Numbered from the stretch's first letter, positions 18,188-29,144 are shown. The stretch is 29,144 nucleotides of DNA from a virus (IMGVR_UViG_2737471841_000001:1-29144), one strand, 5' to 3'. Numbers and translations are program-made. The notes: generated by a model from the letters alone, not told the origin.

Positions 18188-18721
18188 ATGTTAAGTGAAA
18201 ACGCAAAAGATATCGAAGGATATGAAGGACTGTACGCCATCACTAATGATGGTAGAGTTTACTCGCATTCAAGAGTAAATTTGAGGGGACGTCTTATTAA
18301 GGGGAGGTGGCTGAAGCATAATCATAACGTAAATGGATATAAGTATGTGTGTTTATATAAGGATGGCGTAAAAAAGAACATACTAATACATAAGCTTGTT
18401 GCATCTCACTTTGTTGGTGGATTTGCTGAAGGGTTACAGGTTAACCATATAGATGGTGATAAATATAATAATAACTATCTAAATCTTGAATGGGTTACTC
18501 CATCAGGAAATATCTCACACTCATATGGATTGGAATCGCGAGGTAATGTTAAAGGAGAAAGGAATGGTAATTCTAAAATATCTAATGATGATGTCATAAA
18601 GATAAAAGAAATGGTTGCCAATGGATTTCCTCAGTGTGAAGTTGCTAAATTATTTGGAATTCACAATTCAAAGGTTAGTAGAATTGTAAATGGCAAGGCA
18701 TGGAGGCATGTGAATGGCTGA
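18188..18721 (+). CDS. Free-standing HNH homing endonuclease (paralog of 16216..16800)
   Basis: 177 aa; N-terminus [30 protein letters not shown] nearly identical to the first HNH protein; HKLVASHF ... [20 protein letters not shown]; C-terminal HTH; AT-rich. Confidence 0.85.
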
Positions 18722-19562
18722 TTCGAATCTCAATGAGCCGGTAACAATTCAGGCTGCGCGCCTTGATGCTTCAATTTTGCCACGCAATATATTCAGCCAG
18801 TCTTACCTGCTGTATGTCATAAATCAGGGTGCTGATGTTGGCGCAATTGCCGGGAAGGCAAATCAGGCTGGTCAGGGCGCTTATGACGCACAAGTCAGGA
18901 ACGATGAGCAGGATGTGATTCTCGCTGACCATGAGCAGCGAATTTCTGCTGCGGAAGCAACGCTTGTTAATCATGAGGAGAGAATCAGCCAGGCAGAATC
19001 AACTCTTCAGGAACATGAAACGCGAATCGCTCAGAATGAAAGCGATATTGCGTCGCTTGATACCAGAGTTCAGTCGCTGGAGTCGCAGGTTTCAGACCAT
19101 GAATCGCGCATCGATGCTCTGGAGTATGCCACTACTCGCAAGAAGTCAGAGGTTGTTTACTCTGGCGTATCAGTAACCATCCCGACAGCGCCGACCAACC
19201 TTGTTAGCCTGCTGAAAACGCTCACGCCGTCATCCGGCTCGTTGGCACCATTCTTCGACACCGTTAACAACAAGATGGTTGTGTTCAACGAGAACAAAAC
19301 CTTGTTCTTCAAGCTGTCGATTGTCGGGACGTGGCCCAGCGGAACCGCCAACAGGTCAATGCAGCTAACATTTTCCGGTTCTGTTCCTGACACACTGGTA
19401 AGCAGTCGCAACTCGGCGACAACAACCGATAACATCTTGTTAGCTACGTTCTTCAGCGTGGATAAAGACGGCTTTCTTGCCACAAATGGCAGCACGTTAA
19501 CCATTCAGTCAAATGGTGCGGCGTTTACTGCCACAACCATCAAAATAATTGCGGAGCAGTGA
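18714..19562 (+). CDS. 26: Tail needle (P22 gp26 family) with coiled-coil repeats and a distinct C-terminal domain
   Basis: 282 aa; N-terminal ~60 aa resembles gp26 ([41 protein letters not shown]); tandem ~14-residue HE-RI repeats; C-terminal ~140 aa unrelated to P22 gp26. Confidence 0.85.
18931..19120 (+). repeat. Imperfect ~42-nt tandem repeats encoding the tail-needle coiled coil
   Basis: Repeated units beginning CATGAGCAGCGAATT / CATGAGGAGAGAATC / CATGAAACGCGAATC / CATGAATCGCGCATC, i.e. HEQRIS / HEERIS / HETRIA / HESRID. Confidence 0.6.
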
Positions 19563-24303: not shown

Positions 24304-24789
24304 TTATCTAATGTTGCTGCTACTGTTGCATGTTACCGTGTTTCCAAATCCTGAATTGCAGTTTGTATATGTGTCAACGCGTGTTGGGTAAGGTTGAGTT
24401 ATAACAGGCTGGCGCGCTTTTTGCTCGATCGCTTGCATTGTGTTTACAGCCTGATAATTCAATAAAGCCTGCTGGAATGCTTGGCTTTGTGCTATTTGTT
24501 GGGCTTGTTCTTGGCTTTGTAATTGAACATAAAGATTCTGAAGCTCAAGTCTTGCCTGTGCGTCACTTATCTTGCCTTCATCGACACCTTGCCCGAGCAT
24601 CTTTGCAGCAAGGACATACAGCTTAGGTGTTGGTGCTGATGCCATGCGTGAGTCGTTCTTCACACTGGCATCAAGGCAATTAGCCATATCGCTAAGCTTT
24701 TGATAGCGTTGTTCGCAACTTGCTTGATAGTCACTTACTTTTGCGCATCCAACCAGCAGAAGCGGGATAATTAACAGTGATTTTTTCAT
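24304..24789 (-). CDS. Secreted lipoprotein of unknown function (candidate lysogeny-expressed moron)
   Basis: 161 aa from ATG 24789 (AAGGAG 9 nt upstream); signal peptide with lipobox MKKSLLIIPLLLVGC; four further Cys; Gln-rich helical middle. Confidence 0.7.
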   Translation of the reverse strand: MKKSLLIIPLLLVGCAKVSDYQASCEQRYQKLSDMANCLDASVKNDSRMASAPTPKLYVLAAKMLGQGVDEGKISDAQARLELQNLYVQLQSQEQAQQIAQSQAFQQALLNYQAVNTMQAIEQKARQPVITQPYPTRVDTYTNCNSGFGNTVTCNSSSNIR

Positions 24790-24859
24790 ATGGTTAACTC
24801 TCCTTAGTTTTTCACAGGATATCATGAAAGCAATGCCATTTTAGCCGGAAACTAGATTT

Positions 24860-25159
24860 CTATGTTTCCTTTTTATTATTGCTATACATGGTCTTAAGCG
24901 TTTCAAAAACCATTTTCTTAACCATATCAGATTGTTGTTCTGCCATACGCTCTGCATCGTCAATGTAAACTGATGCAGAGCTTTGTTTAGCCAATGATTC
25001 TTCAATCGCTGCAATTATCTCTGAGTTCAGCGACCTGTTATTCATCTTCGCGCGCTGTTTAATTTTCGCGTGGAGTTCATGCGGAAGTCTCAAGTGAAAC
25101 TGCGCCTCGTCGTATTTGCTGTACATCCTTGATGCCTCACCAGTTGGGTGGAATGGCAT
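24860..25159 (-). CDS. mnt: Mnt-like ribbon-helix-helix (Arc/MetJ family) repressor
   Basis: RLPHELHAKIKQRAKMNNRSLNSEIIAAIEESL ... DDAERMAEQQSDMVKKMVFETLK resembles P22 Mnt; start may be the internal ATG at 25126. Confidence 0.8.
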   Translation of the reverse strand: MPFHPTGEASRMYSKYDEAQFHLRLPHELHAKIKQRAKMNNRSLNSEIIAAIEESLAKQSSASVYIDDAERMAEQQSDMVKKMVFETLKTMYSNNKKET

Positions 25160-25199
25160 CGTAACCTACTGGATAAATACTCAATAGTACCATTTCGGT

Positions 25200-25247: not shown

Positions 25248-27305
25248 ATGTCAGATATCACCGCAAATGTTGTGGTAAGCATGCCTTCTCAACTCTTCAC
25301 TATGGCTCGTTCTTTTAAAGCGGTAGCCAATGGCGAAATTTATATCGGGAAAATTGACACTGACCCGGTAAATCCTGAAAACCGGATTCAGGTTTATGTA
25401 GAGAACGAAGACGGCTCTCACGTTCCTGTTTCGCAACCAATCATCATTAACGCTGCTGGTTACCCGGTATATAACGGACAGATTGCCAAGTTCGTAACTG
25501 TGCAAGGCCATTCTATGGCTGTTTATGATGCGTATGGTGCACAGCAATTCTATTTTCCTAATGTGCTGAAGTACGATCCTGATCAGTTAAGGCAGGAGCT
25601 GGCGGGGCCAAACGGCGTAGATCTGGTAAACGGAGCGGCAAAGCAGACTGATGTTAATAAGCTGAACATTCACACTAGTGGCTACGTCAATGTGCTTGAG
25701 TATATCCCTGAAAACCTGCATCAGTACCTTACAGACTTGGCTCAGTCACAAACGAACGCAGGGGACCTAATTTCCTATCTTAATGCAGCGTCAGCATACT
25801 GCGAAAAGAACCACAAAGACCTTGTATTTCCGTTCGGATATTACTTTGTATCAAACACCTTCATGTTACCTGCTGGGGTAAAGGTGATAGGTCTTGGCTA
25901 CCCGTACATCCTTGCTCTAACCCCATTTAACGCTTCAAATATTATTGTAAGTTGCGATAAAACAGGACAGCCAACTTATGATATGGATATGTTTCATATA
26001 AACGGTCCTGGCCCTAGCAACCTCGACATGGTGGGGTTGCGAGTCGGCGGATGTCGTAATAGCAAATTTTCAAGGATAATCGTTACCAGTTGCTTCTCTG
26101 CCGGGGTAGAGGTTTACCCAACAGTAGCAACATCAGGAGATGTTGAAAACCTACACCTTGACCATGTCTGGACCGTACTGTCTGGAGGGGTGCGCTTTAA
26201 AGCTAACGCCTCTATAGCTAGGGGCAATATCACGGATGCAACTGTATCAAACTGTCAATTAACGACTGGAGATGCAACCTTGTCCGGACCTCCAGCTATC
26301 ACTATTACAGGGGCGCCTGGCAGGCAGATATTCGGGATTGCTTTTAAACGGGTATTTACACAAACGACTGACCAGGACCATATAGTAGTAAATCCAAATG
26401 GTGGAAGCGTATTCCATAATACATTTAGTGATATAAGTGGTGAGTCATGGACTATTGCCGCAGGCGGTATTTCTGGCTCATTCGCTAAGAATGCGCTATA
26501 TGTACTCGATGGTGCATTTACCACCAATTCATTCCGCGACTTCTATAAACAGGGTTTGCCTGGCAACGGTATTACTTTAGGTGTTGGCTCATCTGGTAAT
26601 CTGTTTGACGGGCTTCGATTCATGGACAGAAATGTTGTTGGATATAACAACAAGTGGTTAATCATACCATCTGGAGCAAACTCAAACAGTTTTCACGCCT
26701 GCTACTTCGATGGTTGTTTTAATCGCGCCGATTCTGGATATGGTGGCGTAGCGGCTAATTATGTATTCAGAGCTTTTGACGGTAAGATTTCTGACTTGAG
26801 CGGTAGCACAAAATTTGACACACCGGAGATAAGAGACGTTTCTCCAGTTCTCATTAAGAGGTCAACGATATTCGCTATTAGTGGCAACCAATTAGTTAAC
26901 TATCCAGTAACGGGATGCGCCTTTGCAACGACTGCCGATGGCATTAGCGTTGCCGTCCCTGCTGGTAACACCCCCTACTTTCTTACCATACCTTTTACCC
27001 CCACTGCGGGATTCGCAGGTAAATTTATCGGACTTACTATCAAATATGTATGCGGGGCCATGAATGGTATGACCCTGTCGGCGGATATCTGCGGCGCAGG
27101 TTCCGGAGTAACAGATTTAACCACGGGTAAAGCAAATGTGTTTAGCATGTATGGCGCTTACAACTCAGATAACAAAACCGTCACATTAACATTTGGGGGG
27201 GACAGAACGGCGCAGGCTAACATGGCTTTACAAGATATTATAATCACCGAAGGTGCTAACATTCCTTACATACCAAACTTCCGAAAAATATACATTGAGA
27301 GTTAA
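25248..27305 (+). CDS. 9: Tailspike (P22 gp9-like head-binding N-terminus, divergent receptor-binding domain)
   Basis: ATG 25248 with GGAG 9 nt upstream; [11 protein letters not shown]...[21 protein letters not shown]...[13 protein letters not shown]...VLKYDPDQ matches the gp9 head-binding domain; remainder differs from P22 gp9. Confidence 0.9.
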
Positions 27306-27322
27306 CTATATAAACGTGATGT

Positions 27323-27345
27323 AGCCCACTCAGGTGGGCTTTTTG
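27323..27345 (+). terminator. Intrinsic terminator after tailspike
   Basis: AGCCCAC-TCAG-GTGGGCT stem-loop followed by TTTTTG, 18 nt after the tailspike stop. Confidence 0.65.
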
Positions 27346-27378
27346 CTGTACGCGCATTGATCTCCATCCGATATTGAT

Positions 27379-27398
27379 AATACTGTATGTGCATGCAG
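27379..27398 (+). promoter_or_regulatory. LexA (SOS) box
   Basis: TACTGTATGTGCATGCAGTA fits the TACTG-N10-CAGTA consensus; followed by GGAGG and start codons. Confidence 0.6.
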
Positions 27399-27420
27399 TA
27401 TCAATCGGAGGTGCATCATG

Positions 27421-27804
27421 GGATTCCCGAGTCCAGCATAAGACTACGTTGAACAACGCATATCGCTCGACAAGCGCATCATAACCAGGCCAGCGGCTAC
27501 GTACTTCATGCGAGCAGGTTCGACACACTACCGGGAAGGCATCATTAATGGAGCGCTACTCGTCGTTGATGCGTCACTTACGCCATGCGACGGCTCATTG
27601 CTGGTATGCAGAATGGAAAGTGAGCTGAGGATAAAGCGATATCGAACTCATCCAAAGCCCCACCTTGAGGATTTGCAAACAGGAAGGCGAGAAGAGATAC
27701 CTGCATACGATGACGGAACTAGCCCGGATGCGATATTTGGTGTTATCACTTACATCATCAACGATTCGCGTTCTGGTGAGTTTGGTGATTGTCCGGTGAC
27801 ATAG
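27421..27804 (+). pseudogene. UmuD'-like (S24 LexA-type) gene remnant, interrupted by an in-frame stop
   Basis: Frame 1 reads GFPSPA-stop-DYVEQRISLDKRIITRPAATYFMRAGSTHYREG...; GFPSPAADYVEQRI is the UmuD region just after its cleavage site. TAA at 27439-27441; the ASGDSM-equivalent reads AGSTHY. Confidence 0.55.
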
Positions 27805-27810
27805 GTGTCG

Positions 27811-28968
27811 TTATGCCACCATCCCATCAAGCCAGTCCGCCCACCATTGCATCATCTCCCTGCGCTTATCGAGATACTGAGCATGGTTGTAAATCCCACG
27901 CACAGATCCGCCGTTGGCATGTGCCAGTTGCACTTCAATAGCGTCAGCAGGCCATTCGTGCTCGTTCATAATTGTGCTGAATTCATGCCTGAATCCGTGA
28001 CCGCTTTCCAGACCCTCATAGCCGATTTGTTTGATCACAAGCAATACCGCGTTCTCGCAGATTGGCTTCTTCTTATCGTTGCGCCCGGCAAAAACAAACT
28101 CTGACACTGGTTTAGTGATTGAGCTTAGCGTAGTGAGAAGTTCAACTACCTGGTCTGACATAGGAACCACATGAATTTTGCGTCCCTTCATCACATTGGC
28201 GTCGATGGTGATAATCCTGTTTTCAAAATCGACGTTCTTCCATAGCATGGAACGAAGCTCTTTTGTTCTGAGGGCTGTGTAGCGTAAAACTTTGGTCGCA
28301 ATGAGCGATACGATACTTCCTGAAAATGTTGCCAGTGCTTTATTGAATGCCGGGATCTGGTCTGCAGGCAGAAACGGGAAGTTCTTCTTGCGGTATCCCT
28401 TCATGGCGTCAGCAAGGTCAGGTGCCGGGTTATATTTAGCCCTACCAGTGACAATAGCGTAACGGAAAACCTCGCCGCATCTTCTGCGGGCTTTATTTGC
28501 TCGCTCCATTGCACCGCGATCTTCAAATCTGCGGATTACTTCCAGCAGTTGCATCGGCTCAATATCCTGAATCTCAAGACCGCCGATGATGGGTAAAATG
28601 TCGTCATCAAACATTTTTGCAAGTTCATTTGCATAGCCTACTGACCAGACTTGCTTCTTGTGCTCGTACCATTCCTTGTAAATGGCGCTAAAGGAATTGT
28701 TGTTAGACGAAGCCTTTTTCGCCTTTACCGGATCGATGCCAACCGAGATCTCTTTCCTCGCAGTCCATGCTTTATCCCTTGCCTCTTGCAAAGTCATAAG
28801 CGGATATTTTCCGACGGTCAGGATTTTCTCCTTACCGTCAATCTTGTATCGAAGCTGCCATACCTTTTTCCCTGATACAGGGACATAAAGGTACAGGCCA
28901 TTACCATCGAGTAGGCGGTATGGTTTTTCTTTCGGCTTTGCTGCTTCAATCTGCTTAACGGTGAGCAT
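27811..28968 (-). CDS. int: Tyrosine integrase (IntS / P4-like family with N-terminal arm-binding domain)
   Basis: 385 aa from ATG 28968 (MLTVKQIEAAKPKEKPYRLLDGNGLYLYVPVSGKK...), closely resembling E. coli IntS as I recall it; an in-frame GTG at 29004 is an alternative start. Confidence 0.9.
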   Translation of the reverse strand: MLTVKQIEAAKPKEKPYRLLDGNGLYLYVPVSGKKVWQLRYKIDGKEKILTVGKYPLMTLQEARDKAWTARKEISVGIDPVKAKKASSNNNSFSAIYKEWYEHKKQVWSVGYANELAKMFDDDILPIIGGLEIQDIEPMQLLEVIRRFEDRGAMERANKARRRCGEVFRYAIVTGRAKYNPAPDLADAMKGYRKKNFPFLPADQIPAFNKALATFSGSIVSLIATKVLRYTALRTKELRSMLWKNVDFENRIITIDANVMKGRKIHVVPMSDQVVELLTTLSSITKPVSEFVFAGRNDKKKPICENAVLLVIKQIGYEGLESGHGFRHEFSTIMNEHEWPADAIEVQLAHANGGSVRGIYNHAQYLDKRREMMQWWADWLDGMVA

Positions 28969-29129: not shown

Positions 29130-29144
29130 TGGTGTCCCCTGCAG
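29130..29144 (-). tRNA. argW: 3' end of a tRNA-Arg gene (argW-type), truncated by the window edge; likely attachment-site core
   Basis: Reverse complement of the last 15 nt is CTGCAGGGGACACCA, the acceptor/T-arm 3' end with CCA as I recall argW; lies ~160 nt upstream of the integrase on the same strand. Confidence 0.55.

Follow-up and report, generated by a model that had tools for sequence, protein, structure and literature searches.

Towards its right-hand end, the 29,144-nucleotide stretch of viral DNA analysed here (the window) carries a UmuD'-like reading frame that is preceded by an SOS box and interrupted by a stop codon. This raises the question of which gene it is, or was, and what is left of its function. 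A sequence-only reading had taken the locus for either a decaying SOS mutagenesis gene or a damage-inducible remnant whose LexA box may still act. In our judgement it is very probably an accessory cassette of the HumD family, carried by a P22-like argW prophage and killed by a single C>T exchange in codon 8. The following features of the window are relevant.

25248–27305: tailspike gene with a P22-type head-binding domain
27323–27340, plus strand: stem-loop AGCCCACTCAGGTGGGCT of the intrinsic terminator of the tailspike gene, followed by a T-run to 27345
27357–27362, plus strand: conserved -35-like hexamer TTGATC, from an upstream alignment by eye
27381–27400: LexA (SOS) box TACTGTATGTGCATGCAGTA, from sequence match and conserved position
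27407–27411, plus strand: Shine-Dalgarno sequence GGAGG, 6 nt 5' of ATG 27418
27418–27441, plus strand: start of the putative humD pseudogene, ATG GGA TTC CCG AGT CCA GCA TAA
27442–27804, plus strand: rest of the HumD-family S24-fold domain and family-specific C-terminal tail, 120 codons, with TAG at 27802–27804
27508–27804, plus strand: 98-aa ORF from the first in-frame ATG past the stop
27811–28968, minus strand: IntS-type tyrosine integrase gene, convergent with humD
29130–29144, minus strand: 3' end of tRNA-Arg (argW), first 15 nt, an exact match to the tRNA-Arg start in two E. coli prophages (L001 and L002)

The structural genes of the window are about 97% identical to those of the E. coli phages APC_JM3.2, HZ41, Louie and IME10, and the window is the end of a P22-like (Lederbergvirus-type) prophage. 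Since it ends 15 nt into the 3' end of argW, the argW fragment marks either the end next to the integrase gene in an integrated prophage or the attP of a phage that carries a tRNA fragment. The placement of the frame between the tailspike terminator and the minus-strand integrase gene, as originally described, was borne out. This terminator isolates the humD cassette from late transcription, and its hairpin also precedes the cassette in L001, L002 and three further relatives (L103, L003, L094). At the other end the stop codons of the convergent humD and int genes are 6 bp apart, and no terminator was found between them.

Translated from ATG 27418, the frame gives MGFPSPA and meets an ochre stop at codon 8 (TAA, 27439–27441); DYVEQRI and the remainder of 120 sense codons follow up to TAG 27802–27804, exactly in the order first read. 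For family assignment codon 8 was read as Gln, which gives a protein of 128 aa. Over residues 1–127 of 128 this protein scores 213.3 bits with the NCBIfam equivalog model NF051876, "HumD family translesion DNA polymerase" (cut-off 120). The read-through product also matches Pfam Peptidase_S24, PHROG 811 ('UmuD-like', E 1e-47) and the UmuD' structures 1umu (E 6e-18) and 1i4v, at E values of about 1e-17. The proposed S24-type homology to UmuD' is thus real. Residue 2 aligns with residue 25 of full-length UmuD (8gmt_B) and with residue 1 of UmuD' (1umu); the frame does begin where UmuD is cleaved to UmuD', with Gly2 corresponding to Gly25 of UmuD. A passage in PMC7092418 describes the HumD encoded by P1 as a shorter, already activated UmuD. 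In tblastn searches 94 phage records contained a match, with 84.3% identity to N15 gp26, 69.5% to HumD of P1 and P7, and 60–75% to the copies in HK140, phiKO2, D6, HK639 and others. The P1 record notes that HumD functionally complements UmuD' and that one LexA site is common to lxr and humD; the phiKO2 record marks a lexA site before the UmuD-like gp23. These matches, unambiguous at sequence level, place the gene in the named HumD family, whose typical members are P1 HumD and N15 gp26. Since the TAA at codon 8 breaks the ORF of about 128 codons, it would be a HumD-family pseudogene and not a working member.

Membership among the canonical UmuD/MucA/RumA proteins was considered and rejected. 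Homology to UmuD' is clear in the alignment, but the canonical model NF007621 gives 83.3 bits, below its cut-off of 110, and there is neither an N-terminal arm with a Cys/Ala-Gly cleavage site, nor a Ser-Lys dyad, nor a umuC operon.

The closest known relatives compare with the window copy as follows. P1 HumD (AAQ14073.1; McLenigan et al. 1999, J Bacteriol 181:7005) has 128–129 aa like the window protein, to which it is 69.5% identical. It likewise starts with MGFPSPA at the UmuD' N-terminus, has no adjacent umuC, has a LexA site 20–39 nt 5' of its ATG and ends in the conserved C-terminal tail ...INDARSGEFDDCPV. In the column of UmuD Ser60, however, P1 HumD has Ser (AADSHH) and the window protein Thr (AGSTHY). 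The P1 copy is intact, lies in a plasmid prophage beside phd-doc and shares its LexA site with the divergent lxr, whereas the window copy has the TAA at codon 8 and lies in a P22-like prophage beside int. N15 gp26 (NP_046921.1, 'UmuD-like protein') is the closest named phage protein, with 84.3% identity over 127 residues. It has an AGATHY-type motif, Gln at codon 8 and a LexA-type box upstream, and its gene follows the tail fibre gene. Unlike the window copy it is intact and is followed by its own terminator and then by the par genes of a linear plasmid prophage, with no integrase gene there. With E. coli UmuD/UmuD' (PDB entries 1umu, 1i4v and 8gmt) the window protein has in common the S24 fold, the processed N-terminus GFPSPA.DYVEQRI, the equivalent of Lys97 and LexA control. 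It differs in lacking the 24-residue arm and the cleavage site, in the exchange of Ser60 for Thr, in an extra C-terminal tail of 13 residues and in the absence of a umuC operon.

Compared with UmuD, three of these features look like decay. In 46 aligned HumD-type sequences (45 relatives and the window), however, the start MGFPSPA is found in nearly all relatives, and the Ser60 column holds Thr in 38, Ser in seven, including P1, and Ala in one. AGSTHY is indeed the stretch that aligns with the GDSM serine motif of UmuD, and its Thr is the majority residue of the family. Lys97, whose equivalent is present in the window, is kept in 40 of the 46. No umuC-like sequence was detected in the window by tblastn with UmuC from canonical umuDC loci (best E 0.43, a chance-level value). 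The lack of a umuC-like gene after the frame, as first noticed, thus extends to the whole window, and an intact gene with a partner polymerase gene nearby was not encountered. A umuC gene is absent from the inspected HumD loci of P1, N15, phiKO2 and E. coli prophages as well. Pairs of intact family members have dN/dS values of 0.028–0.113, i.e. they are under strong purifying selection. Since the missing arm, the non-serine AGSTHY and the missing umuC all occur in such intact relatives, they are ancestral traits of the family and not signs of decay. The family also has a nearly invariant C-terminal tail of 13–14 residues, (I)NDARSGEFDDCPVM, which UmuD' lacks (window 27760–27801, residues 115–128). 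In the window and in L001 the tail GEFGDCPVT, at the intS junction, is two positions off the consensus.

What remains is the stop codon itself. The closest intact relatives (L099, L105, L085, L091 and L103; 91–94% protein identity) read GCA/GCG-CAA-GAC at codons 7–9, compared with GCA-TAA-GAC in the window. A single C>T transition at 27439, as judged from this alignment, would have turned Gln8 (CAA) into the ochre stop. Between the window and its relatives dN/dS is 0.055–0.116, and the window lineage gave no signal of relaxed selection. In a comparison with 45 distinct family proteins, the only unusual residues besides the stop are A117S, D123G and M128T, of which A117S is private to the window; D123G and M128T are common to L001 and part of the intS junction. 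One stop, at most one private unusual substitution and a dN/dS like that of intact copies mean that the inactivation is very recent or that the stop is a sequencing error. Of the original description, a UmuD'-like, LexA-boxed and stop-interrupted gene therefore stands, but decay comes down to one C>T exchange and, at the most, a single unusual substitution. With the stop codon masked, megablast gave no second copy of the stop allele in phages. It was not found in complete E. coli genomes, where the best match was 83.8% identical, nor was there an exact match in viral and metagenome contigs or in an index of protein positions.

The same slot is occupied in other prophages. The humD genes of E. 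coli argW prophages lie in a setting identical to that of the window (tailspike, terminator, LexA box, humD, convergent intS, tRNA-Arg) and share with it the flanks and the C-terminal ...GEFGDCPVT; one of these copies is a pseudogene. In E. coli 160-11H1 (L001) the arrangement of tailspike-like gene, HumD (WP_464290654.1), intS and tRNA-Arg is intact, and codon 8 is Ala (GCA), not Gln. In E. coli LCP17S3_I1 (L002) the frameshifted ACR3H1_RS06930 in this slot is annotated as a pseudogene. Over the searched region nucleotide identity to the window is 83.8% for L001 and 72.3% for L002, and by megablast 39 of 5,426 complete E. coli genomes match, most of them adjoining intS. Within 27308–27815 the upstream flank and the last 30 nt are closest to L001, while for the gene body L085 and L091, which belong to other phage backgrounds, come nearest, at 91% nucleotide identity. 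Consequently, the locus is mosaic, which points to recombination in or around the cassette.

Decayed copies were found in several of these settings. Remnants in Salmonella phage BTP1 and E. coli phage APC_JM3.2 resemble the window in their slot near int/attP, their CTG-N10-CAG box and their broken frame, and APC_JM3.2 even has the same unusual box core, CTGTATGTGCATGCAG. They carry several lesions, however, namely multiple stops, a frameshift, damage to the Shine-Dalgarno sequence or start region and numerous exchanges of conserved residues; the window carries one. In the APC_JM3.2 copy (L112, MG197996.1, 27550–27933) codons 99 and 121 are stops and replacements are numerous; its annotation calls it a 98-aa 'DNA polymerase V subunit' though it is a pseudogene. 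In BTP1 (L113, LT714109.2, about 18586–18990) a stop at codon 29 is combined with a frameshift and a damaged ribosome-binding site. This pseudogene, located between gtrA and int and equipped with a perfect LexA box, is unannotated, and the record places an antisense 'hypothetical protein', BTP1_017, across it. Among viral contigs that were selected by the non-coding part of the cassette alone, about three of 35 copies were disrupted (L093, L122, L134). Given these copies in L002, APC_JM3.2, BTP1 and viral contigs, sporadic pseudogenisation of accessory humD is ordinary. The cassette can also hold another gene: four viral contigs (L114, L126, L127, L133) have the same LexA box, ribosome-binding site and first 7–8 codons (MGFPSPA/MGFPSPS), followed by a different protein of 105 aa that ends in ...DDNPVM and matches PHROG 3469 ('UmuD-like') and no NCBIfam model. 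It looks like a divergent HumD sister swapped into the same cassette.

The control region shows the near-consensus LexA box and the GGAGG that had been read there. The box, TACTGTATGTGCATGCAGTA, lies 37 to 18 nt 5' of ATG 27418 and shares 16 of its 20 bases with TACTG(TA)5CAGTA, including all six of CTG/CAG. An exact TACTG-N10-CAGTA match occurs a single time in the 29 kb window; shuffled sequence contained a mean of 0.54 matches with up to one mismatch allowed. It is also the top site in the window, at 18.4 bits, for a LexA position matrix trained on 18 E. coli sites, which themselves score 15.3–28.9 bits. Among relatives from viral contigs, metagenomes and the genomes of E. coli and other enterobacteria, most have a CTG-N10-CAG box about 35 nt 5' of the ATG, 22 distinct boxes having been gathered, and the GenBank records of P1 and phiKO2 mark the equivalent sites as LexA binding sites. 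The unique exact match, the shuffles, the matrix score, the positional conservation and the P1 and phiKO2 annotation together indicate that the box exceeds chance expectation. It has a G at position 15 (ATGCAG vs ATACAG) that is absent from the 22 distinct family boxes and from the 18 E. coli sites of the matrix, so its affinity for LexA may be reduced. Nevertheless, the operator probably still binds LexA. Relatives also keep the Shine-Dalgarno region CGGAGGTG.

No sigma-70 promoter on the plus strand before humD passed a consensus scan, and hence TTGATC as the -35 hexamer, with the box overlapping the -10/+1 region, is a guess made by hand. The annotated PhumD of P1, about 480 nt upstream, is no help in placing the window promoter. 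On the minus strand a promoter-like TTGATA-16-TATTAT (27404 to 27377), with 10 of 12 positions matching, overlaps the LexA box. A divergent gene shares the LexA site in P1 and phiKO2 (lxr and the dinI-like gp22, respectively). In the window no gene was found on the minus strand past the box, where only the terminator and 3' end of the tailspike gene lie, and the promoter-like site may thus be the relic of a divergent pair.

Further variation was seen around the operator. Just 5' of the LexA box about 20 of 45 relatives have an inverted repeat, TTGATCG-N7-CGATCAA, with two Dam GATC sites; carriers are L099, L103, L090, L104, L088, L086, L011, L013, L019, L020, L102, L087, L094, L002 and BTP1 (L113, 3440–3462). 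The window (27357–27379) and L001 keep only the left TTGATC arm, the right arm being gone, and the repeat is missing in P1, N15 and phiKO2. A second operator is one conceivable role, a methylation-sensitive promoter element another. In three viral contigs (L117, L135, L142), each with an intact humD, the left half of the LexA box is swapped for unrelated sequence (…GGGGAAGACCCAT|GCATATACAGTAAC…) directly past the stop codon of another gene. A recombination junction inside the operator may have freed these copies from LexA control. A half-LexA-like sequence without the CAG arm, TACTGGATAAATACTCAATA, in the intergenic region at 25167–25186 of the window is probably unrelated to LexA.

By analogy, an intact version of the cassette would act as follows. 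As a 'moron' it would bring its own promoter region, a LexA box, a strong ribosome-binding site and a 128-codon ORF. In the lysogen LexA would repress humD; upon DNA damage activated RecA would induce self-cleavage of LexA and humD would be derepressed. HumD would be made in the active UmuD' form and would hence need no RecA-mediated processing. Together with host UmuC it would form a Pol V-like translesion polymerase. The HumD/UmuC partnership is established for P1 HumD, and a UmuC-linked function is on record for this protein only, which is 69.5% identical to the window protein. In the window the TAA in codon 8 would halt translation after the seven residues MGFPSPA, and functional HumD is not expected. 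Neither a tRNA nor an Rfam element was found in the window, and the region upstream of ATG 27508 lacks a Shine-Dalgarno sequence. With no suppressor tRNA there, the window holds nothing to rescue translation past the codon-8 stop. The cassette has probably been reduced to a damage-inducible promoter, with a non-coding transcript that reaches into the 3' end of the convergent int gene.

The alternatives differ in what they make of the stop codon and of the parts around it. If the TAA were a sequencing or assembly error or a minority variant, the source phage would have an intact, LexA-regulated humD. The two states differ in a single base, T instead of C at 27439; there is no damage to the ribosome-binding site, start codon or box, and apart from the stop the ORF is like that of intact relatives (dN/dS 0.06–0.12, one private unusual substitution). 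Moreover, no independent copy of the stop allele was found. Substitution errors are uncommon in consensus assemblies, however, and genuine disrupted copies are not rare in the family (L002, APC_JM3.2, BTP1, L093, L122, L134), so a real nonsense allele is unremarkable, and we regard an error as unlikely. Translation might also restart at ATG 27508, the first in-frame ATG past the stop, to yield a stable 98-aa fragment of the S24 core with a modified or dominant-negative function. The 98-aa ORF that had been pointed out is present (27508–27804) and open, and the fragment alone scores 149 bits on NF051876. PHROG 10470, a 'UmuD-like' family of 79 residues, matches residues 37–117, and its existence means that short ORFs of such kind do get annotated in phage genomes. 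The start codon, however, lies 66 nt past the TAA with no Shine-Dalgarno sequence within 25 nt upstream (AACCAGGCCAGCGGCTACGTACTTCATG). The first 30 residues, which correspond to 24–53 of UmuD, would be missing from the product, and with them the nearly invariant GFPSPA.DYVE..ISLD segment; no protein identical to this product is on record. A functional restart product is thus extremely improbable in our view.

Two further explanations concern the operator and not the protein. The gene may be dead and its LexA box and promoter kept for another role, for instance antisense or convergent transcription into the integrase gene upon DNA damage, or a minus-strand promoter. The 6 bp between the humD and int stops, free of a terminator, would suit the former, and the minus-strand TTGATA-16-TATTAT overlapping the box, together with the LexA sites shared with a divergent gene in P1 (lxr/humD) and phiKO2 (dinI-like/umuD-like), the latter. 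Persistence of CTG-N10-CAG in the decayed copies of BTP1, APC_JM3.2 and L002 points in the same direction, but four pseudogenes with a surviving 20-nt box are also expected from recent neutral decay. Moreover, the minus strand downstream of the box encodes nothing, and three relatives have an intact humD with half of the box lost, which makes box and gene separable either way. We consider such a kept role highly improbable. More generally, humD might be repeatedly inactivated in P22-like prophages (the window, L002, APC_JM3.2 and the BTP1 group) with survival of the LexA box, either because a constitutively 'pre-activated' UmuD' burdens some hosts and is counter-selected or because the SOS promoter is co-opted, e.g. 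for damage-induced convergent transcription into int that modulates excision. This idea, too, appears decidedly unlikely.

For annotation, the locus should be labelled a HumD-family pseudogene with a LexA box; if the stop proves to be an error, the label would be intact humD. The case is also a reminder that the lack of an arm, of a catalytic serine and of umuC is normal for phage HumD though it looks like decay in comparison with UmuD. With intact HumD genes, lysogens could undergo more SOS mutagenesis, the RecA-dependent checkpoint of UmuD processing being bypassed, and hence live and dead prophage copies could bear on the mutability of the host. The window copy as sequenced is dead. The HumD family, its LexA control, the pre-processed form, the absence of umuC, this slot and pseudogene versions are already present in public annotation, and the window allele is new as a sequence only.

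The neighbouring genes yielded some additional observations. For the tailspike (25248–27305) Pfam matches only the P22-type head-binding domain of 113 residues; the receptor-binding part of about 570 residues has no Pfam match. Its ORF is listed from 25200, which is 16 codons 5' of the likely true start MSDITANV. Directly 5' of the tailspike gene lies an Arc/Mnt-type repressor gene (24860–25159, minus strand) with no antirepressor gene (ant) between them, unlike L001, where an antirepressor gene is present before the tailspike gene. Between this mnt-like gene and the last injection-protein gene, a 173-aa ORF (24304–24825, minus strand) shows a lipoprotein-type signal (…LLLVGCAK…); it matches PHROG 6067 (E 2e-110; unknown function) and no Pfam family. 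Its slot is the sieA position in P22, and the ORF is a candidate superinfection-exclusion or conversion moron.
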